A stretch of 64,000 bases of DNA. Origin: an uncultured Thermoanaerobaculia bacterium (lineage in GTDB: Bacteria > Acidobacteriota > Thermoanaerobaculia > Gp7-AA8). Positions 4,241-63,445 of this stretch are shown in pieces; the first letter of the stretch is position 1, and each line of letters opens with the position of its first letter. Made by a program: the position numbers and the translations under genes. The stretch lies in the NCBI GenBank assembly GCA_964650405.1, contig CAZYTO010000002.1:5164-69163 (forward strand), read 5' to 3'. Below the pieces are notes generated by a model. That model was not told the DNA's origin. It saw nothing but the letters and a program-made list of their open reading frames with translations, and did not search any database.

Positions 4241-4370
4241 CGTTGTCCGTTGTCCGTTGCTCGTTGTTCGTGGGTCCGTTTCAGGATCACGACGTGAGCC
4301 AGCTTTGACGCGCCGACCACGAACCACGAATCAACGCCAAACGAGCGACGAACAACGAACAACGAACAGC
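4241..4370. repeat. intergenic inverted arms built from tandem heptamers (CGTTGTC... / ...GAACAAC)
   Basis: Left arm 4241-4278 (CGTTGTC CGTTGTC CGTTGCT CGTTGTT); right arm 4314-4370 is its imperfect reverse complement; lies between DUF3467 and trmFO. Confidence 0.75.
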
Positions 4371-4373
4371 GAA

Positions 4374-5678
4374 ATGCGAGTCAAGATCATCGGCGCCGGT
4401 TTGGCCGGCTCGGAATGCGCGTTCGGGCTGGCGCGGCGCGGGCATCGCGTCGAGCTGCACGAGATGCGGCCGGTGAAGACCACGCCCGCGCACCAGACCA
4501 CGAACCTTGCGGAGCTGGTCTGCTCGAATTCGTTCCGCTCCAGCGCGGCCGCGAACGCCGTAGGCCTGCTGAAGGCGGAGATGAAGCTGATGCAGTCGCT
4601 GGTCATTCGCTGCGGGGAGGCGGCGCGGGTGCCGGCGGGCGATGCCTTCGCCGTGGACCGCGAGCGCTTCTCGGCCGCCGTGACCGAGGCCATCGGGAAC
4701 GAGCCGAACATCACACTGCGGCGCGACGAGGTGACGAACCTCGACCGCGGCCATGCGGACTTTCTCGTCGGGGCGACCGGGCCGCTCACGTCGCAGCCGC
4801 TTTTCGAAGCGATCAACGAGTTCCTCGGCCGCGACGGTCTGTACTTCTACGACGCCATCGCCCCGATTCTGGCCGCCGACTCGCTCGATCTCTCGAAGCT
4901 CTACTGGAAGTCGCGTTATGGCAAGGGAGACGGCAGCGATTACCTCAATGCAGCCATGACCCAGGAGCAGTACGAGGCTTTCGTGGCCGCGCTCCTCGGT
5001 GCGGAGCTCTATCCGCTGCACGACTTCGAGCAGGCAGTGCACTTCGAAGGCTGCCTGCCGGTGGAAGAGATCGCCTCGCGCGGCATCGAGACGCTGCGCT
5101 TCGGTCCCATGAAGCCGGTCGGGCTCGAGCACCCCGTCACGGGCGAGCGCCCGCACGCCGTCGTGCAGCTCCGCAAGGAAGACCTGTCGGACGAGTACTT
5201 CAACCTCGTCGGGTTCCAGACCAAGATGAAGGTCCCCGAACAGAAGCGCGTCATCCGGATGATTCCGGGCCTGGAGCAGGCCGAGCTGGCGCGCTTCGGT
5301 TCCATGCACCGCAATACCTTCATCAATGGGCCGCGGCACCTGCGCAACACGTTCCAGACGAAGCGCGACGAGCGGATCTTCTTCGCCGGCCAGATCACGG
5401 GCGTGGAAGGCTATGTCGAGTCGAGTGCCGTCGGACTGCTCGTGGCGCGCTACATTGATGAGCTCTCCCGTCACGGCGCCGCTCACCCCCTGCCGTACCA
5501 CACGGCCCTCGGTGCGCTCGGCCGTCACGTGGCGGAGTCGTCGCCCGACCGCTATCAGCCCTCGAACGTGACATGGGCGATGATCGAAGACGTCGTCGGC
5601 CGGGTGAAGAAGATCGAGAAGCGCGAGCGCCAGGCGGCCAAGGCGCTGGACGCGATCGGTCTGCTCGGAACGCGGTAA
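4374..5678 (+). CDS. trmFO: methylenetetrahydrofolate--tRNA-(uracil-5-)-methyltransferase TrmFO
   Basis: MRVKIIGAGLAGSECAF FAD-binding N-terminus, FFAGQITGVEGYVESSAVG near the C-terminus; start at internal ATG 4374. Confidence 0.9.
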   Translation: MRVKIIGAGLAGSECAFGLARRGHRVELHEMRPVKTTPAHQTTNLAELVCSNSFRSSAAANAVGLLKAEMKLMQSLVIRCGEAARVPAGDAFAVDRERFSAAVTEAIGNEPNITLRRDEVTNLDRGHADFLVGATGPLTSQPLFEAINEFLGRDGLYFYDAIAPILAADSLDLSKLYWKSRYGKGDGSDYLNAAMTQEQYEAFVAALLGAELYPLHDFEQAVHFEGCLPVEEIASRGIETLRFGPMKPVGLEHPVTGERPHAVVQLRKEDLSDEYFNLVGFQTKMKVPEQKRVIRMIPGLEQAELARFGSMHRNTFINGPRHLRNTFQTKRDERIFFAGQITGVEGYVESSAVGLLVARYIDELSRHGAAHPLPYHTALGALGRHVAESSPDRYQPSNVTWAMIEDVVGRVKKIEKRERQAAKALDAIGLLGTR

Positions 5679-12101: not shown

Positions 12102-12137
12102 GGTTCGCTGGTCGCTGTTGGCTGGTCGCTGGTCGGG
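12102..12137. repeat. tandem heptamer tract (TGGTCGC-type)
   Basis: GGTTCGC TGGTCGC TGTTGGC TGGTCGC TGGTCGG directly after the RND stop codon. Confidence 0.6.
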
Positions 12138-13653: not shown

Positions 13654-13684
13654 GGGTTCGTCCTCGTTTCTGCCTTCTGCCTTC

Positions 13685-14038
13685 TTACTTCTGACCTTGC
13701 GCGCGGAGGTTGCGGTACCAGCCGCCCGTGAGCACGAAGCGCGGGAAGGTGATCCACTGCTCGGCCAGGATGCGGCTGACGGCGTCGCCCGCGCCGAGGA
13801 ACGGCTCCGGCTGAGAGGGCTCCCGGCGATGGCCGAGTCCCTGGACGGCGAAGGCGAGCAGCAGCACGACGGCGGCCGCGCCGGCCAGCGCGAGCCGCCA
13901 CGTCGCCAAGGCCGCCAGCAGGGCCAGGGTCGCCAGCTCGAACAGAGGGACGGCCACGATGTGCACGAGGAGGTTGACCCGGTCCTGATGTTTCGTCGCG
14001 TAGTCGGACCACTGCCAGCGGAGCAGATCAGGGCGCAT
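13685..14038 (-). CDS. DUF962/Mpo1-like small membrane protein
   Basis: H-x4-N-x3-H-x4-P pattern (HQDRVNLLVHIVAVP) and two TM helices. Confidence 0.45.
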   Translation of the reverse strand: MRPDLLRWQWSDYATKHQDRVNLLVHIVAVPLFELATLALLAALATWRLALAGAAAVVLLLAFAVQGLGHRREPSQPEPFLGAGDAVSRILAEQWITFPRFVLTGGWYRNLRAQGQK

Positions 14039-14684: not shown

Positions 14685-14846
14685 GCGCGGATCATATGTC
14701 CAGCGGTCGTCGTCTCGGCGTCCCCGTGCGAGCCGTCTTCGATCAGCATCGCAACGAGATGGGGAGCGAGTCGATCCACACTCTCCATGTTGAAGAGCTG
14801 GACTGCTCAACCAGCCGGCAGGATGAAGCCGCTGGCCTATGGGCGC

Positions 14847-15308
14847 GCAGACCTCGATCCGAGCATCTGTCGCATCGCTGAAACACGCTGACGCATCGAT
14901 GGAACAGCCCTAGAACCGCATGCCACCAAGTGTGACATGCATATCTAGCAGTGTTACATCCATGCCACAAGTTGTGGCATGGATGTAACACTTCCAGACA
15001 TCGATGTGACTCTTCCAGGAATCGATGCCTGCGACGTAGATATCGATGCCTACAGCGTAGATATTGATGCCTACAGCGTAGACATTGATGCCTAGGAACC
15101 AGGTATCGATGCCTACAGCGTAGACATTGGTGCCTGCGACGTAGGTATCGATGCCCGCGGCCCTGAGCTCGAGGCCTACGGCGTAGGCGTTCATGCCTAC
15201 CGCCTGAACGCTGGCGCCTGCTGCCCAGACATCATCACCAACATTCCGGATCTCGTTCCCAGCACCGTCGACATCCGCGCCCGGAATGTAGACGTCCAGC
15301 CAGACGGC
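14847..15308. repeat. tandem array of 22 phased 21-bp units (core AGACATCGATGCC)
   Basis: Unit starts at 14847+21n checked by hand (14868 ... 14994, 15015, 15036 ...); near-identical units GTAGAYATYGATGCCTACAGC; local GC drop. Confidence 0.85.
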
Positions 15309-15546
15309 ACTGGAGAAAACGGCGACTCTTCCCCCCTGCGTTCTCCGCCTCTCCGCGTGAGCCGTCTTCAATCAGCCACCCGAACGAGATGGGAAGCAAA
15401 TCGACCGACACCTTCGATGTTGAAGGGCGACTAGACCGGGCGGCTTCCAGGCGCCCTGACGTGGAGGAGCGGCAGGATGCCGCTCAGCCAGCCGGCAGGA
15501 TGCCGACGCTCCGATGCGGCGCTCCGGTGTCCTCCGCTGTGCGGCC

Positions 15547-17401: not shown

Positions 17402-17532
17402 AGGGTAAGTGGGTAGTGGTTAGTGGTTAGGACGCCTAACCTCGCAACCCCCTAACCTCGCAACCCCCTAACCTCGCAACCCCCTAACCTCGCAACCTCG
17501 CAACCCTGCAACCCCGCAACACCGCAACACCG
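17402..17532. repeat. intergenic microsatellite block (GGTTAGT heptamers facing CCTAACCTCGCAACCC 16-mers)
   Basis: GGGTAAG TGGGTAG TGGTTAG TGGTTAGG ACG CCTAACC...; the 16-mer repeats about 4 times, then CGCAAC octamers. Confidence 0.8.
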
Positions 17533-17536
17533 AAAC

Positions 17537-20172: not shown

Positions 20173-20205
20173 GTGCTGAGTTTTGAGTGCCGAGTGCCGA
20201 GTGCA
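20173..20205. repeat. GAGTGCC-family heptamer tract
   Basis: GTGCTGA GTTTTGA GTGCCGA GTGCCGA GTGCAC just 3' of the GH1 gene. Confidence 0.7.
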
Positions 20206-22079: not shown

Positions 22080-22154
22080 GCAAGGTGTGTACGGGTCGCA
22101 TCCCGGCCACCGAATGCGCAGGAGGTGAATTCGACGTAAAGCCGGAGGGGGAGA

Positions 22155-22228
22155 GCCGAGTGCTGAGTGCCGAGGTGAAACGGCATGAGGCATGGTCGCC
22201 GTCTCGGCACTCGGCACTCGGCACTCGC
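22155..22228. repeat. hairpin of GAGTGCC / GGCACTC heptamer arms
   Basis: GCCGAGTGCTGAGTGCCGAG ... 28-nt loop with GGCATGAGGCATGG ... CTCGGCACTCGGCACTCGGCACTCGC. Confidence 0.8.
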
Positions 22229-23856: not shown

Positions 23857-23993
23857 GCGGGTACCAGGTACCAGTTGCCGGGTACCTCATTTCGTTACCC
23901 GGTACGCGTTACCCGGTACCCGTTACCCCGTACCTGTTACCCGGCACCCGTTACCCCGTACCTGTTACCCGGCACCCGTTACCTGTTACCCGG
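23857..23993. repeat. GGTACC/GTTACCC microsatellite block including a 28-bp unit duplicated in tandem
   Basis: CCCGTTACCCCGTACCTGTTACCCGGCA occurs twice in tandem, flanked by GGTACC-containing arms; between convergent genes. Confidence 0.8.
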
Positions 23994-24010
23994 TTCCGCC
24001 TCCGGCGCGA

Positions 24011-30171: not shown

Positions 30172-30210
30172 GGGGAGAAACCGGTGCGCCGCGGGTAACG
30201 GCTGGGGCGC

Positions 30211-30287
30211 GGCACTCGGCACTCAGCACTCGGCACTCAGCACTCGGCACTCAGCACTCGGCACTCGGCACTCGGCACTCGGCACTC
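30211..30287. repeat. 11 tandem heptamers (GGCACTC/AGCACTC) upstream of polA
   Basis: Exactly 77 nt = 11 units by hand count; ends 16 nt before the polA ATG. Confidence 0.9.
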
Positions 30288-32974: not shown

Positions 32975-33034
32975 GCGAGTGCTGAGTGCCGAGTGCCGAG
33001 CCGGCATGAGGCATGAGTGATGAGGCATGAGAGG
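32975..33034. repeat. inverted GAGTGCC heptamers followed by GGCATGAG-type repeats
   Basis: GCGAGTGCTGAGTGCCGAGTGCCGAG then CCGGCATGAGGCATGAGTGATGAGGCATGAGAGG, starting 2 nt after the polA stop. Confidence 0.85.
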
Positions 33035-35755: not shown

Positions 35756-35862
35756 GAGAGTGGTTAGGTGAGAGTGGTTAGTGGTTAGAAGAGAGTGGTT
35801 CGGCTCCGTGGTCAGCCTAATCCCAACCACCCTAACCACTAACCACTAACCACTAACCACTC
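35756..35862. repeat. hairpin of GGTTAGT / ACTAACC heptamer arms
   Basis: Left arm 35756-35800, 16-nt spacer, right arm 35817-35862 (CTAACCACTAACCACTAACCACTAACCAC); overlaps the last codons of the DUF72 gene. Confidence 0.85.
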
Positions 35863-38494: not shown

Positions 38495-38557
38495 GACACT
38501 CAGCACTCAGCACTCGGCACTCAGCACTCAGCACTCAGCACTCGGCACTCAGGACTC
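38495..38557. repeat. 9 tandem heptamers (RGCACTC) ending next to a start codon
   Basis: GACACTC AGCACTC AGCACTC GGCACTC AGCACTC AGCACTC AGCACTC GGCACTC AGGACTC, then TCAT ATG. Confidence 0.9.
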
Positions 38558-39701: not shown

Positions 39702-39736
39702 GGGGGAGAGGGAAGGGCGAAGGGCGAAGGGAAGCG
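39702..39736. repeat. purine-rich arm (GGGAAGGGCGAAGGGCG), left bracket of a two-gene cassette
   Basis: Its imperfect reverse complement lies at 40742-40784. Confidence 0.6.
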
Positions 39737-56797: not shown

Positions 56798-58057
56798 TTA
56801 TCTCTGAATCTCGAGGTCGACGCTGCTGTAAAGCTCGCGCATGGTCTGCGTGCAGACCACCTGACGGGGCTTGTCACTGCCAGCCGTGACCAGGTCCACG
56901 TTGGCCAGCTTGATCCCGTGGCGTGTCAGCTCGTTGCGGATCGCTTCGAGCGAGCGCTGGGCGCGGGCGTGGTTGGCGGCCGGCGTGGCCTCGCGAAACT
57001 CGTGCGAGACGAGGCGCAAGTGGCCCGGCGCCTTGGCGAGGATGTTGGCCAGGATGCGCAGGGCGTGATCGCTGGCGGCGTCGTCGAGCGAGCCGTCGCT
57101 GCGCCAGGCCAGGCCGAACAACGGCCAGCGGCCGGTCCGCCTCAGAAACGAGGCCGCGAACACTTCCGTGTCATCCGGCGGAACGGCCTCGCTGACCCGC
57201 TCGCCGAACCAGGCGTCGTCGTAGAAGAACGGGATCGGCTCTTCATGCCAGTCGAGGAAGCTGAGATGTTTGCCGTCGCGCGAGACCGTGGCCGCGGCAT
57301 AGCCCGATTCGAGGCCGCGGATCCAGAGCAGGCGGATCATCCGGTCCTGGTCGGCTCCTCCCTCGAAGAAGTAAGGCTGCTTGTTCAGTTGCATCGCCCC
57401 GGCGACGTGGTTGCCGTACTGGGCGAACGTGGCCGTGTTCCCGTTGACCCGCCAGGTGCCGGCCAGATGCGGCGGCACCGGGTGCTCCAGCTCCTGCCCG
57501 CGGACGAGGAAGGAGCCGAGCTGCACCTGAGAATCGGGCACGAACCCGGAGAGCACGGTGACACGCAACCGGTCGGCCTCCACCGGCGGCACGACGAAGA
57601 ACTGAGCGTTGGCGGTATCCTTCAGCGACACCGTGGCGATGGTCGCGAATGCGCCGTCGCCCTTCGCCGCCTCCACGCGGGCGTCGCGCAGCCGGAACGG
57701 CTTCTTCGCCGTGCTCCGGAAGCCCACCGAGTTGATGCGTGTGAGCACCGGCAGGCCGACGATGATGGACTGCGGCAGGTCATGGGCCGGTCCGATCCAG
57801 CCGCTGTCGGGATTTCCGTCGATGGCGTTCAGCGCCGACACGTCGAGCTTGTCCTCGGCCGTGCGGTCGATCAGGCATGCCCCGCTGGCGAGCGTGGCCA
57901 GGCTGGTCCGTTCGTCATGGTCGTCACCCGACGTCGGCATTTCTTCCGGGCGCTGGGCGTCGGAAGATCCCGGGGAAGAAGCGCCATGCTTTTCCTTTGG
58001 ACAGGCAGTCAGCAGCAGGGCCGCGAGAAGGCAGACCGCAGACGTCCGGTACCTCAC
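56798..58057 (-). CDS. lipoprotein with discoidin (F5/8 type C)-like domain and OmpA-like C-terminus (tentative)
   Basis: Lipobox LLLTAC; ALNAIDGNPDSGW motif; GTG start overlapping the glyS stop. Confidence 0.55.
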   Translation of the reverse strand: MRYRTSAVCLLAALLLTACPKEKHGASSPGSSDAQRPEEMPTSGDDHDERTSLATLASGACLIDRTAEDKLDVSALNAIDGNPDSGWIGPAHDLPQSIIVGLPVLTRINSVGFRSTAKKPFRLRDARVEAAKGDGAFATIATVSLKDTANAQFFVVPPVEADRLRVTVLSGFVPDSQVQLGSFLVRGQELEHPVPPHLAGTWRVNGNTATFAQYGNHVAGAMQLNKQPYFFEGGADQDRMIRLLWIRGLESGYAAATVSRDGKHLSFLDWHEEPIPFFYDDAWFGERVSEAVPPDDTEVFAASFLRRTGRWPLFGLAWRSDGSLDDAASDHALRILANILAKAPGHLRLVSHEFREATPAANHARAQRSLEAIRNELTRHGIKLANVDLVTAGSDKPRQVVCTQTMRELYSSVDLEIQR

Positions 58058-60131
58058 GCCTGATACTCGCTCCGGTTGACGACGATCTTCGTCACATCGG
58101 CGATCCGCCCCACTGCGTTGCCGACCTTGCGCAGCAGCGACATCCGGTTCTTCCGCACCGTCTCGTCCTCCACCATCACCATGACTTCGTCGAAGAACGC
58201 TTCCAGTTCCGGCGCCATGGCCGCGAACGACTGCAGGGCGTTGTTGTAGTCACGCTCGGCGATCATCTCGCCGATCTGCTCCGACACTGCATCCGCCAGG
58301 TCGTTCAGGCGCTTCTCCCGGTCCTCTTCCAGCCTGGCCGGGTTGACCGACGACGAGTCGTGGCCGGCGGTGATGTTGGCGATGCGCTTTGCCGAGTCGA
58401 GGATGGAGAGGAAGTTCGCCTCGTCGCGCACGCGCTTGAGAGCCGTGATGCGGTCGACCAGGTCCGTGAGCGACCCGGCCCAGCCGGCCTCCATCGCCGC
58501 GGCGATCTCGTCGTAGGCGAAGCCGTACGCCGACGTCTCCAGGATCGTCTTCACGCGGTCGGCAAAGAAGGTAATGAGGAGTTGCCGGGTTGCCGCATCG
58601 CACGGCTGCCGGGTCGCTCCGATCTCGATCAGCCTGTCGATGCCGATCTTCACCTGGCGCTTGTCCCGGTTGAGGAGGATCTGCACCACGCCCTGCGCCG
58701 CGCGGCGGAGGGCGAAGGGGTCCTTCGAACCGGTGGGAACCGCTCCGATGCGGAAGAATCCGATCAACGTGTCGATGCGATCGGCCAGGGAGACGATGGC
58801 GCCGGTGATCCCGCGGGGCAGCGGATCCTCGGCATTGACGGGGAGATAGTGGTCGTAGACCGCCTGCCACACCTCCTCGGCAAGCCCTTCTCCCGGCGAG
58901 TAAATGCCGCCGACTTTTCCCTGAAGCTCCGGTAACTCCTTCACCATCTCGGTGACGAGGTCGCTCTTGCAGAGCTCTCCCGCGGTGACGGCGGGCGTGC
59001 GATCGATGCCCAGCTCGTCGCTCAGGGCGCCGGCGATGTGCGCCACGCGCACGGCCTTCTCCGCATAGTTGCCCAGCTCCGCGTGAAACTGCAGGTGCGA
59101 GAGCTGCTCCGTGCGGCCGGCCAGTTTCGTCTTCCGGTCGACGTCGTAGAAGAACTTCGCGTCGGCGAAGCGGGCGTTCGTGACGAACGAGTTGCCGTAG
59201 GCCGCGTTGCCGTCCGGATCGCCCTCGTTGTCCAGCACCGCCAGGAAGGAGCTGGTCAGTTTCGCGGCCCCGTCGCGGATGGGGAGCTGCTTCTGGTGCA
59301 CGCGCATGACCGTGACCAGGACTTCTTCCGGCAGCGCCAGATACTCGGGACGAAATTCGGCGCGCACGACGCCGGGATACTCGGTCAGGTACTGCCACTG
59401 CGCCCAGATCGAGGCGTCGACGGCCGCTTCGCCGCGAACCTCGTGCGCCAGCACACGGGCGCGCTCGGCCATGACATGCCGCCGGCGCACCGGATCGGCG
59501 ACCACGCGCGACAGCTCGAGGTTCGTGACGTAGTCGTTGTAGGTCTTCCCTGCCTTGAAGGCATCGGGCGCCAGGGTGCGGTGCCCGACGGTCGTCTCGC
59601 CGGAGGCGACGCCGAAGATGGCCAGCGGCAGGTGCACGCCGTCGAAGATCGAGACGATGGAGTGGACCGGGCGGATGTAGGCGTGCTCGCCGATTCCCCA
59701 GCGCATCATCTTCGGCCAGCGGATGGCCTCGACGATCTGCGGGATGCGTTGTTGCAGCACGTCGGCAGTGGCACGCCCGGCGACCTTGCGCTGGACGCGG
59801 ACGTAGTCGCCGCCCTCCAGCAGATCGCCGGGCGAGGCGTTGTTCTTCTTCAGGAAGCCGTTCAGCGCCGCCGTCGGATTGCCGCCGGCGTCGTAGGCTG
59901 CCTTGCGGGGCGGCCCCTTCACTTCCTCCTCGCGATCCGCTTCCTTCTGGGGAAGGCCGTTGAGGAGGATGACGATCCGGCGCGAGGTGGTGCTCACCCG
60001 CACGGGCTCAGGCGCCTCCGCCTTCAGCTCCTCGGCCAGCTTCGCCAGTTGCCCGGCCAGCGCAGCCTGCGCGCTGTCGTGCATCCAGGCCGGGATCTCT
60101 TCCGTCAGCAGCTCGAAGAAGTACTCGGCCA

Positions 60132-60132
<1 letters not shown>
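58054..60132 (-). CDS. glyS: glycine--tRNA ligase beta subunit
   Basis: MAEYFFELLTEEIPAWM N-terminus; internal ATG 60132 overlaps the glyQ stop (ATGA). Confidence 0.93.
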
Positions 60133-61037
<905 letters not shown>

Positions 61038-61777: not shown

Positions 61778-62191
61778 ATGAACGACGAAGCCGCCGTCCG
61801 CGCAAGTTTCACAAAACAAGAGCTCATGCGCCTGCTCGGGGCCTCGCTCGGACCGGTATCTCCGGGCGCGGCCGAGATCGTCCTTCCCTGGCGGCCCGAG
61901 CTGGGCCAGCAGGACGGCGTCCTCCACGCTGGCGCCGTTGCCAGCATCGCCGACGTTGCCTGCGGCTTGGCGGCACTGACGATGATGGAAGAAGGCGCCG
62001 GGGTCATGAGCGTCGAGTTCAAGCTCAACCTCATCGCCCCTGCCCGCGGCGAACGCTTCGTGGCGAGGGCTCGTGTCGTCCGTTCCGGCAGGACGTTGAC
62101 GGTGACCACGGCAGACGTCTTCGCCGTTGACGGGAGCACGGAAACGGTCGTGGCTACGATGCTGGGGACGATGATTTCGCGCAGAGGGTGA
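61778..62191 (+). CDS. PaaI-family hotdog-fold thioesterase
   Basis: GVLHAGAVASIADVACG ... SVEFKLNLIAPA motifs. Confidence 0.8.
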   Translation: MNDEAAVRASFTKQELMRLLGASLGPVSPGAAEIVLPWRPELGQQDGVLHAGAVASIADVACGLAALTMMEEGAGVMSVEFKLNLIAPARGERFVARARVVRSGRTLTVTTADVFAVDGSTETVVATMLGTMISRRG

Positions 62192-62395
62192 GGAGTGGCA
62201 GCATTCAGCAACGGGAACCACCCGGAAAGTGTTGACGAAGCCGAGAACGACGTCGAGGCAGATCGAGCGGCGAGTCGCCGCCGGGTCCACCATTCGCCGA
62301 TCCGTCGACTCGCGCTCCCCGGCTCGCGGGAGCGGTCCAGTCCGGCAGAGAACACAAGATATGAGGGCGGGGGGGCAAGCCAACGCCCGCTCCGG

Positions 62396-62584
62396 CCGGA
62401 CATTCACGCCGTCGCGCCAGATATCAATGTCTGACGCCCAGACATGAATGGCTCCCGTCCAGACATGAATGGGTCCCATCCAGACAACGATGTCTGGCGC
62501 TCAGACATTAACGAGCGGCTGCCAGACATGAACGATCCGGCTGCAGACATCAATGTCTGCGCGCCAGACATGAATGTCAGGATT
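62396..62584. repeat. tandem array of 9 phased 21-bp units (core CCAGACATGAATG)
   Basis: Unit starts 62396, 62417, 62438, 62459, 62480, 62501, 62522, 62543, 62564, checked by hand. Confidence 0.9.
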
Positions 62585-62971
62585 TTCCCCAGGGCAGGAA
62601 GAAATATGATTACGGCAACGCTGTTACGGGAAGTTCACAACTCTCACAGTTATTCGGCGTCAAAAACACGCGAATAAGCGCTCCGCAACTCCCGCTCACG
62701 TTGTTGTCGATCTCACGCAGAAACAGTTAGTTACCAGCAGTCTTGCGTTCGTGGTTTGTGGCGGTATGGACGGCGAGGTGGAATACCATCACAAGAAAGT
62801 TGAATCCAAAATGCGCGTTCCTACGCTTTTCTAATAGAGGGCAAACCGCCTTCGGCGAGAGCGGCGCACCGGCTTGCTTCAGAAGAACTGAACCTGGAAC
62901 AACCCCCCGCCTGCCCCTGTTGAGCAAATCGTACCGATGTGGTACGGTTTCGCTCCTTTTTGGGTAGCCGA

Positions 62972-63445
62972 ATGCTGAAAATCTCGAAGCTCACCGACTA
63001 CGGCCTTCTTGCCTCCGTCTATCTCGCCCGCAAGCATGGGGAGGTGGTCTCGGCGCGCGAGATCGCCGGGTTTTACCAACTGCCGCTGCCGATGATCACC
63101 AAGGTGCTCAAGACGTTGCACCATGGAGGGGTCATCGAGTCGCAGCGCGGCGTCGGCGGCGGTTACTCGTTCACGAGTGAAGTCGAAACGGTCACGCTCG
63201 GGCACCTCATCGCCGTGCTGGAGGGGCCGTGGGACCTCGTCGAGTGCGAGACCCACGACGAGAGCGGCCACGCCCTCTGCGCCATCCGCAGGGCCTGCCC
63301 CTCACGGCGGTTCATGTACGGCATCAACCGGGCCATCAAGGGCGCCTTCGACCAGGTCACGCTCCACGACCTGATCCATGGGGCCATACCCTTCCCGCTC
63401 TTCGACAAGGCACGCCTCACCACCGGCGCGGAGGCACTGCAATGA
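62972..63445 (+). CDS. Rrf2-family regulator (IscR/SufR-like)
   Basis: MLKISKLTDYGL N-terminal wHTH, GGGYSF, Cys cluster C-x5-C; ATGA overlap with sufB. Confidence 0.85.
   Translation: MLKISKLTDYGLLASVYLARKHGEVVSAREIAGFYQLPLPMITKVLKTLHHGGVIESQRGVGGGYSFTSEVETVTLGHLIAVLEGPWDLVECETHDESGHALCAIRRACPSRRFMYGINRAIKGAFDQVTLHDLIHGAIPFPLFDKARLTTGAEALQ

Follow-up and report, generated by a model that had tools for sequence, protein, structure and literature searches.

Known repeat systems comparable to the array

Several kinds of short repeat known from bacteria can be compared with the element described here, an array of nine 21-bp units (array 2, positions 62396-62584) located upstream of an Rrf2 (IscR-like)-suf operon in a stretch of 64,000 nucleotides (64 kb, 65.7% G+C; hereafter the window) from contig CAZYTO010000002.1 of an uncultured Thermoanaerobaculia bacterium. 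Bacterial minisatellites or variable-number tandem repeats (VNTR), e.g., the mycobacterial interspersed repetitive unit (MIRU) loci, resemble it in having head-to-tail intergenic units tens of base pairs long, a copy number that varies between close strains (a variation seen here at sister arrays), degenerate edges and no fixed tie to the neighbouring genes. The arrays reported here differ from them in having a short dyad as unit, a phase of 21 bp that corresponds to two turns of the helix, flips of orientation within arrays and a core common to arrays placed at unrelated loci.

Iterons, such as those of R6K and RK2, and type II/Ib centromeres, such as parC of R1 and pSK41 or the heptad arrays of pSM19035 bound by the omega repressor, are helix-phased repeats of ~7-22 bp in which direct and inverted half-sites are mixed, with a conserved core and a variable spacer. 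The same features are found in array 2 and in a second array of the window (array 1), both with a period of exactly 21 bp, but here rep or par genes are missing next to the arrays, which lie among chromosomal housekeeping genes, are longer than those systems and far more variable, and have no known binding protein. Operators of the Rrf2/IscR type, going by what is generally known of this family, are also comparable as dyad-symmetric DNA upstream of an Rrf2-suf operon. However, what the relatives of our genome conserve at the promoter is AAATCGTACC-N5-GGTACGGTTT, from which array 2 differs in sequence, and array 2 itself is not conserved.

Repetitive extragenic palindromic (REP) sequences are imperfect palindromes, 20-40 bp in size, that carry at one end a tag, GTAG or CGTC, which is left unpaired (PMC3733652). 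Like the arrays studied here, REPs and the bacterial interspersed mosaic elements (BIME) built from them are short imperfect intergenic palindromes found mostly 3' of genes, often clustered in both orientations and foldable into larger structures (PMC3733652, PMC3333891). In contrast to them, the dyads of array 2 span 16-18 bp, its units start with CCAG and lack an unpaired GTAG/CGTC tag, and units abut at a fixed 21-bp period instead of forming inverted pairs with variable linkers; dispersed single copies were also not seen in the 64 kb, and a tyrosine transposase associated with the arrays is not known. Intergenic heptamer repeats, known from cyanobacteria, Xanthomonas (GGGAATC) and Beggiatoaceae (TAACTGA), form another group (PMC4692102, PMC4679880; the TAACTGA repeats are described in the latter). 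According to PMC4692102, which draws on earlier surveys, heptameric repeats are over-represented among bacterial simple repeats, which is tentatively tied to polymerase slippage, and some of those in Xanthomonas are in inverted-repeat arrangements, with extensive variation in length and sequence between close species. Our window is also full of 7-bp intergenic repeats, some of them inverted pairs, and the 21-bp unit (21 = 3 x 7) can be read as a heptamer, an inverted heptamer and 7 bp. Nevertheless, the heptads of array 2 (CCAGACA/TGAATGG/CTCCCGT) are mutually unrelated and the unit has no internal 7-bp periodicity, hence it is not a heptamer repeat.

Structure of array 2

Array 2 is a non-coding, lineage-specific tandem repeat. 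Its units start at 62396, 62417, 62438, 62459, 62480, 62501, 62522, 62543 and 62564, a spacing of exactly 21 bp both in the sequence as read and in a register print, and Tandem Repeats Finder (TRF) assigned to it a period of 21 (7.9 copies, score 91) together with a super-period of 63 (2.5 copies, score 156). With a repeat search that retrieved eight in-register copies at the same 21-bp spacing, these results confirm the nine-unit phased array reported in the earlier note. The unit core, CCAGACATGAATG, is exact in three units and carries one mismatch in one, two in another two and three in two more, the weakest being the first unit (62396, CCGGACATTCACG), which is degenerate, with four mismatches by our own count. 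About 11 chance matches to this 13-mer core with up to three mismatches are expected across the whole window, and eight matches at a fixed spacing thus exclude chance. The heptamer CAGACAT itself occurs nine times on the plus strand of the window, six of them within array 2.

Three of the nine units are real palindromes, with dyads of 16-18 bp. Two are perfect (62480-62497 and 62543-62560) and the third, at 62418-62433 (CAGATATCAATGTCTG), is broken by a single T/G mismatch, just as had been noticed before. These full dyads fall at every third unit, i.e., with the 63-bp super-period, and the earlier view of the array as a mix of full dyads and left-half-only units is an accurate description. 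Coding capacity had also been doubted, and the six-frame check bears this out, as every frame of 62396-62584 holds at least one stop, including a TGA in the minus-strand IHVW (IHVW/IDIW) frame.

The orthologous spacer in relatives

We compared the Rrf2 loci of six relatives whose Rrf2 proteins are 81-92% identical to that of the window. The gene order glyS-glyQ-...-thioesterase (4HBT)-Rrf2-sufB is kept in L122/L123 and L205/L206, with thioesterase-Rrf2 spacers of 463 and 280 bp, respectively, each containing a conserved open reading frame (ORF) for a basic protein of 56 amino acids. No CAGACAT array was found in these spacers, nor in L202, L203 and L121 (Rrf2 identities of 83, 82 and 92%), of which L121 covers just the proximal 164 bp. 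A comparison between the relatives' 56-amino acid ORF and the window ORF at 62195-62434 detected no homology. Instead of the array, each lineage has its own repeats in the spacer: AGCTCTT heptamers in L122, 14-mers in L202 and GGTTCCGGAACC/GGGTCCGGACCC palindromes in L121. The contig of L121, the closest relative, ends 164 bp before Rrf2 inside palindromic repeats of ~20 bp (positions 1-60, TTGGTTCCGGAACCAA aatcc AGGGTCCGGACCC), so that different palindromic repeats occupy the space upstream of Rrf2 in different lineages.

The situation is the opposite directly 5' of Rrf2, where a block of the form TGTTGAGYAAAYCGTACC-N5-GGTACKGTTTCGC is retained in all six relatives. In an alignment of the window with five of them, positions 62918-62953 are nearly invariant and the sequence upstream of the block is unalignable. 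The block contains a -35-like TTGAGC (62920-62925) and a -10-like TACGGT (62943-62948) separated by a 17-bp spacer, and the 10-5-10 inverted repeat AAATCGTACC-N5-GGTACGGTTT lies at 62926-62950. Judging from the family, it resembles an autoregulated Rrf2 promoter; a simple scan labels it a terminator-like hairpin, which we deem wrong. The inverted repeat bears no resemblance to CAGACAT-NN-ATGTCTG, and array 2 ends ~330 bp upstream of the -35 element. The lack of the array in relatives, the different repeats of each lineage and the unalignable spacer all point to array 2 as a lineage-specific occupant of a hypervariable spacer and no conserved element of suf control.

A family of 21-bp arrays and its variation between strains

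The core of array 2 had been said to match that of a larger array in the window, 47 kb apart (array 1, ~22 units in the same dyad register). This is supported by a profile built from array 1 only, whose best match outside array 1 falls in array 2 at 62540-62560 (expectation value, E, 0.0098); the reciprocal profile from array 2 matches 14994-15009 in array 1 (E 0.16). Array 1 degenerates towards both ends, which is the pattern of tandem repeats homogenised in the middle, and position 14971 divides its left-hand units from right-hand ones of the opposite orientation. At this switch of orientation there is a perfect palindrome with 20-nt arms and a larger inverted repeat (I1) with 43-nt arms, 84% complementary. 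Array 2, unlike array 1, has all its units in one orientation.

A metagenome collection was scanned for three phased AGAYATNRATG cores. Most matches were coding, acidic repeats of low-GC organisms, together with four high-GC non-coding arrays (L135, L144, L165, and L166). When a profile was made from L144, L165 and L166 only, its seven best matches in the window were all inside arrays 1 and 2. The nearest named homologues of the MFS protein flanking L166 (77-80% identity) come from Thermoanaerobaculia metagenome-assembled genomes (MAGs), and for this reason we regard L166 as Thermoanaerobaculia-type. The pooled consensus of 41 distinct units is nnAGACATCGATGTCTnn followed by a 3-bp linker (Gnc), a quasi-palindrome that can be parsed as AGACATC (a heptamer), the same heptamer inverted (GATGTCT) and another 7 bases. 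Profile scans of the 64 kb gave no convincing solitary copy of the motif outside the two arrays. Array 2 belongs to a small family, known to date from two arrays in this genome and others on soil-metagenome contigs, at least one of them Thermoanaerobaculia-type.

A wider family extending across phyla was considered and rejected. The scan of genome contigs for CAGACAT x3 gave at least 119 matches; most of the matches listed are either plain (CAGACAT)n heptamer repeats (52 of 119) or unrelated 21-bp repeats. Two arrays from Phycisphaerae/Phycisphaerales (L005 and L013, GACATCG-N-CGATGTC) look related. However, their half-site spacing is off by 3 bp, and an inverted ATGTC is present in 2 of the 67 non-heptamer CAGACAT arrays among the matches listed, which we estimate to be near chance, and therefore they are not claimed as members.

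The sister arrays of other strains are very dynamic. L144 and L165 represent one locus in two strains, with common flanks, and have 13 and 11 units, respectively, in a differing mix of orientations. L166 and L207 encode a 100% identical MFS protein next to arrays that are unlike in unit number and order. These arrays are made of two blocks, with reverse-complemented units in the one on the right, as array 1 is around 14951-14991. The contigs of L207, L208 and L209 all terminate inside the array.

Origin and possible roles of array 2

Our preferred interpretation, held with no more than moderate confidence, is that array 2 is a hypervariable minisatellite of palindromic units, gaining and losing copies through slippage and unequal exchange and playing no specific part in suf control. 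It has the head-to-tail 21-bp units, the non-coding nature and the lack of conservation at the orthologous site of relatives that go with such an origin. A seed unit would have reached the thioesterase-Rrf2 spacer and would then have been amplified and contracted by 21 or 63 bp at a time, via slipped-strand mispairing and unequal recombination, with orientation flips and dyad repair possibly arising from hairpin-mediated template switching. Any effects of the array are likely generic; for instance, it may form a hairpin or cruciform, hinder transcription reading through from the thioesterase gene, or be a hotspot at which assemblies break and recombination takes place.

Several observations weigh against a minisatellite origin. 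Simple neutral decay of one ancestral unit should be even, but the mismatches of array 2 to its consensus number 5 in columns 1-8, 10 in columns 9-13 and 36 in columns 14-21 (variance test against a uniform spread, P ~0.014), with the last 8 bp of each unit essentially random. The 21-bp register of two helical turns is kept over 9 and ~22 units with no indel, despite ~35% divergence. The dyad core is common to two arrays 47 kb apart and to arrays of other strains, and such a common core at unrelated loci needs either seed dispersal or a common constraint. Finally, variation in copy number was seen at the sister loci and not at the locus of array 2 itself. The uneven conservation, the unbroken phase and the common core are not fully explained by a minisatellite, and this keeps alive the alternative of a bound protein.

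According to this alternative, which we regard as tentative, array 2 would be a phased platform for a putative sequence-specific DNA-binding protein unrelated to suf, akin to iterons or type II centromeres. The CAGACAT-NN-ATG core would be presented on one helix face, with monomers or half-dimers on half units and dimers on the full dyads, and the resulting cooperative nucleoprotein filament could be a centromere-like site, a loading site for a nucleoid protein or the site that the family-spreading element recognises. The conserved left core beside a randomised spacer, the exact phase free of indels, the core common to both window arrays and those of other strains and the full dyads at every third unit all speak for it. 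So does the pooled consensus, a perfect 14-bp dyad (AGACATCGATGTCT) that is conserved mainly as sequence, its pairing coming mostly from column composition. On the other hand, neither the two window arrays nor the sister arrays have a rep, par or other candidate partner gene beside them (the neighbours are glyQS, 4HBT, Rrf2/sufB, GH19, DUF1801, an extracytoplasmic function (ECF) sigma factor, an MFS transporter and a TPR protein), there are no solitary sites in the 64 kb, and unit number and orientation change fast between near-identical strains. The array is moreover missing in relatives, and the conserved columns are not the same in the two arrays: array 1, whose conservation is more even, keeps best G4, T8, G13-C15 and C18, and array 2 C2, G4, A5, A7, A11 and G13.

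More speculatively, the AGACAT-CG-ATGTCT arrays might be chromosomal platforms on which a putative Thermoanaerobaculia-type protein polymerises along one helix face over full and half dyads, a doubtful proposal that would nonetheless account for three features, namely a core that is conserved, a two-turn phase without breaks and a motif that recurs at unrelated loci. Such a protein could be part of a centromere-like or nucleoid-organising system, or of a new kind of element able to seed arrays of its own and amplify them. Should a binding protein indeed lie behind the conserved core and the strict phasing, the family would be a sign of a DNA-organising or self-propagating system not described before.

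It seems unlikely that array 2 is a REP/BIME-like array of hairpins acting as RNA or single-stranded DNA, either as stem-loops in the 3' untranslated region of the thioesterase mRNA that stabilise it or impede read-through, or as hairpin substrates of a dispersing transposase of the HUH/Y1 type. The array does lie downstream of a gene, as the somewhat similar Phycisphaerales array L005 lies between convergent genes, and both strands of both arrays fold far better than dinucleotide shuffles (array 2, z = -4.7 on the plus and -8.1 on the minus strand; array 1, z = -10.2 and -8.3). Such folding on both strands is, however, that of any palindromic array and neither strand is consistently favoured. 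In some units the outer pairs have changed on both sides (GG..CC, TT..AA, GT..AC, CC..GG; 11 of 41 units at each of the two outer pairs), but more than half of the 41 are unpaired at the two outer dyad positions. Overall, 70.2% of mirror pairs are paired compared to 66.4% with shuffled partners, a value reached in 3 of 500 shuffles. As this is barely above the column-shuffle control, the dyad is mainly a conserved sequence, compensatory change is weakly supported and hairpin covariation was rejected. The same conclusion is favoured by the dyad centre, i.e., the would-be loop, which is among the best conserved parts, and by real palindromes making up just three of the nine units. The unpaired GTAG/CGTC tag that REPs need (PMC3733652) is also missing, since the GTAG of array 1 pairs with CTAC in the stem, the strict head-to-tail phasing is unlike that of BIMEs, and profile scans of the window gave no dispersed single copies.

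On the present comparisons, the reading of array 2 as an array of upstream operators or enhancers by which a regulator would act on the Rrf2(IscR-like)-suf operon is close to excluded. It has in its favour an intergenic position 5' of Rrf2-sufB and operator-like dyads, and a link of this kind was implied in the earlier note, but comparison with related genomes did not support it: six relatives lack the array in the orthologous spacer (with L121 covering its proximal 164 bp only) and keep instead another conserved promoter with its 10-5-10 inverted repeat, a nearly invariant proximal operator to which the array motif is unrelated. The distance of ~330 bp from the -35 element also argues against it, as does the use of the same motif in a larger array between unrelated genes (GH19 and DUF1801) and in arrays adjoining MFS and TPR genes in other strains. 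An annotation of array 2 as a suf/IscR regulatory site is to be avoided; the role of conserved operator falls to the promoter's 10-5-10 inverted repeat.

Also close to excluded is a small gene or gene remnant encoding a 7-residue repeat (PDMNxxx on the plus strand, xIHVWxx on the minus), since the 21-bp period of seven codons, the 77-codon ORF (62444-62677) spanning seven units of array 2 and the 153-codon minus-strand ORF spanning array 1 have against them the interruption of all six frames of array 2, TAA/TGA stops in the equivalent frame of sister arrays (in units such as GGAGACGTCGATATCTAAGCC, by our own reading of the frame), the several open frames expected by construction in any 21-bp repeat, a sole Pfam match over array 2 that falls below the curated cutoff, and, for the array 1 ORF (the largest open frame there), no Pfam family and no homologue among 5.8 billion protein clusters.

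Other element types were tried and discarded. Array 2 is not a CRISPR array, in which repeats alternate with unique spacers of about 26-72 bp, as its cores are parted by just 3-8 variable bases. For a known RNA family, the whole window gave nothing in Rfam at gathering thresholds and a permissive scan of 62150-63000 gave just two chance-level microRNA matches. Plasmid or phage iterons, pac sites and centromeres had no blastn match in PLSDB or INPHARED, and a scan of viral contigs returned only low-GC repeats of the acidic EDMD/LDID type. A replication origin was rejected given that there is no turn in GC skew and, by our own reading, no 9-mers resembling DnaA boxes. In the literature, the core sequence was not found as a motif in any paper.

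Genomic context

The features of the window are collected in Table 1. Array 2 begins 204 bp past the stop codon of the thioesterase gene and ends 387 bp short of the Rrf2 gene, in agreement with the leader of ~390 bp that had been described between the array and the gene of the Fe-S regulator. A scan for promoters and terminators found no sigma-70 promoter or intrinsic terminator within the array. The nearest named homologues of the Rrf2 protein come from Thermoanaerobaculia MAGs, with one from a Vicinamibacterales MAG, which places the window in an Acidobacteriota genome of this kind. A 1-kb Logan contig (SRR12313479) carries an identical thioesterase and ends 48 bp beyond the gene.

Table 1. 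Position of arrays, palindromes, genes and other repeats discussed in the text (coordinates of the window unless a locus is given).
Feature	Position	Strand	Remarks
Array 2	62396..62584	.	Nine 21-bp units, single orientation; left core CCAGACAT and positions 11 and 13 (A, G) conserved
Near-palindromic unit CCAGATATCAATGTCTGA	62417..62434	.	6/9 mirror pairs; first full-dyad unit
Perfect inverted repeat CCAGACA-ACGA-TGTCTGG	62480..62497	.	8/9 mirror pairs
Perfect inverted repeat GCAGACAT-CA-ATGTCTGC	62543..62560	.	Top-scoring unit against the pooled family profile
Array 1 (sister array)	14847..15308	.	~22 units of 21 bp (GTAGAYATYGATGCCTAC + 3), dyad register as array 2
Perfect palindrome, 20-nt arms (GTGTTACATCCATGCCACAA g TTGTGGCATGGATGTAACAC)	14951..14991	.	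At orientation switch of array 1
Rrf2/suf promoter-operator block TGTTGAGCAAATCGTACC-GATGT-GGTACGGTTTCGC	62918..62953	+	Not part of array 2
glyS	58054-60315	minus	Assigned from synteny with L122 and L205, whose glyS homologues match PF02092
glyQ	60132-61037	minus	Upstream of thioesterase gene
4HBT/PaaI-type thioesterase	61778-62191	plus	Gene 5' of array 2
Rrf2 (IscR-like) gene	62972-63445		3' of array 2; overlaps start of sufB
Period-7 repeats	4241-4373, 12105-12135, 13668-13698, 17403-17536, 20185-20204, 22151-22227		TRF
Period-7 repeats, continued	23860-23994, 30210-30287, 32976-33031, 35759-35861, 38497-38557, 39712-39731		TRF
Repeats TCAGACATTATTCAAACGATG / TCAGACATTGTTTAAAYAATA / TCAGACATTGTTTTTRCGATA	L003, L008, L011, L024, L031, L039, L045, L057, L095, L096, L105, L110, L112, L116		CAGACAT scan

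The segment between array 2 and the promoter block (62585-62880) is lineage-specific, with ~50% G+C compared to 66% in the window. A Shine-Dalgarno-like AGGAAG (62596-62601) precedes an ORF of 23 codons (62606-62677) in this segment, from which the 56-amino acid basic ORF that relatives carry there (L122 7096-7266, L205 3759-3929) is absent. Array 1 is bracketed by direct repeats of ~120 bp (14713-14833 and 15342-15510; 78-81% identical, E 3e-14), the second with an insertion of ~48 bp, giving on the minus strand the order DUF1801 gene, repeat, array, repeat and GH19-like gene. These flanking repeats, which have no counterpart beside array 2, could be a duplicated leader or promoter, or the trace of an array insertion.

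Other short repeats in the window and in metagenomes

A period of 7 was found in 20 of the 63 TRF rows of the window, often as inverted pairs able to form long hairpins, e.g., (CGTTGTC)n/(ACGAACA)n, (GAGTGCC)n/(CTCGGCA)n and (AGTGGTT)n/(CTAACCA)n. The heptamers CGGCACT/CAGCACT and GTGGTTAG recur at separate loci of the window, and relatives hold other heptamers in orthologous spacers (AGCTCTT in L122). These genome-wide heptamer repeats may be more interesting than the single array 2. As the window shows, these poorly studied soil Acidobacteriota have very dynamic 7- and 21-bp intergenic repeats that are unlike between close relatives and break short-read assemblies, which matters when MAG quality is judged, strains are typed or promoters are compared within this group.

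Heptamers of the (CAGACAT)n type are present in many phyla, including four loci from Acidimicrobiia (L002, L006, L019, and L029), one from Vicinamibacterales (L015), one from Planctomycetota (L022) and many from Bacteroidota and Gammaproteobacteria. In the Acidimicrobiia MAGs, an imperfect array of inverted heptamers (TCTGAGA/ATCTGAC) comes after (CAGACAT)n, so that the two are paired in the way seen for the window heptamers. Three phased 21-bp repeats (TCAGACATTATTCAAACGATG / TCAGACATTGTTTAAAYAATA / TCAGACATTGTTTTTRCGATA) are conserved in many contigs of gut MAGs of the Clostridia type, Christensenellaceae and Prevotella; their appearance is that of iterons, or of recombinase arm sites, belonging to some widespread mobile element. 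Lastly, the Phycisphaerae contig L013 has a second, unrelated 21-bp array (TTCGCGCTGCCTTGACCGAAG, ~10 copies, 5204-5411) located between two PEP-CTERM-like coding segments, and in the mechanical ORF list it appears fused with these neighbours into a single long ORF.

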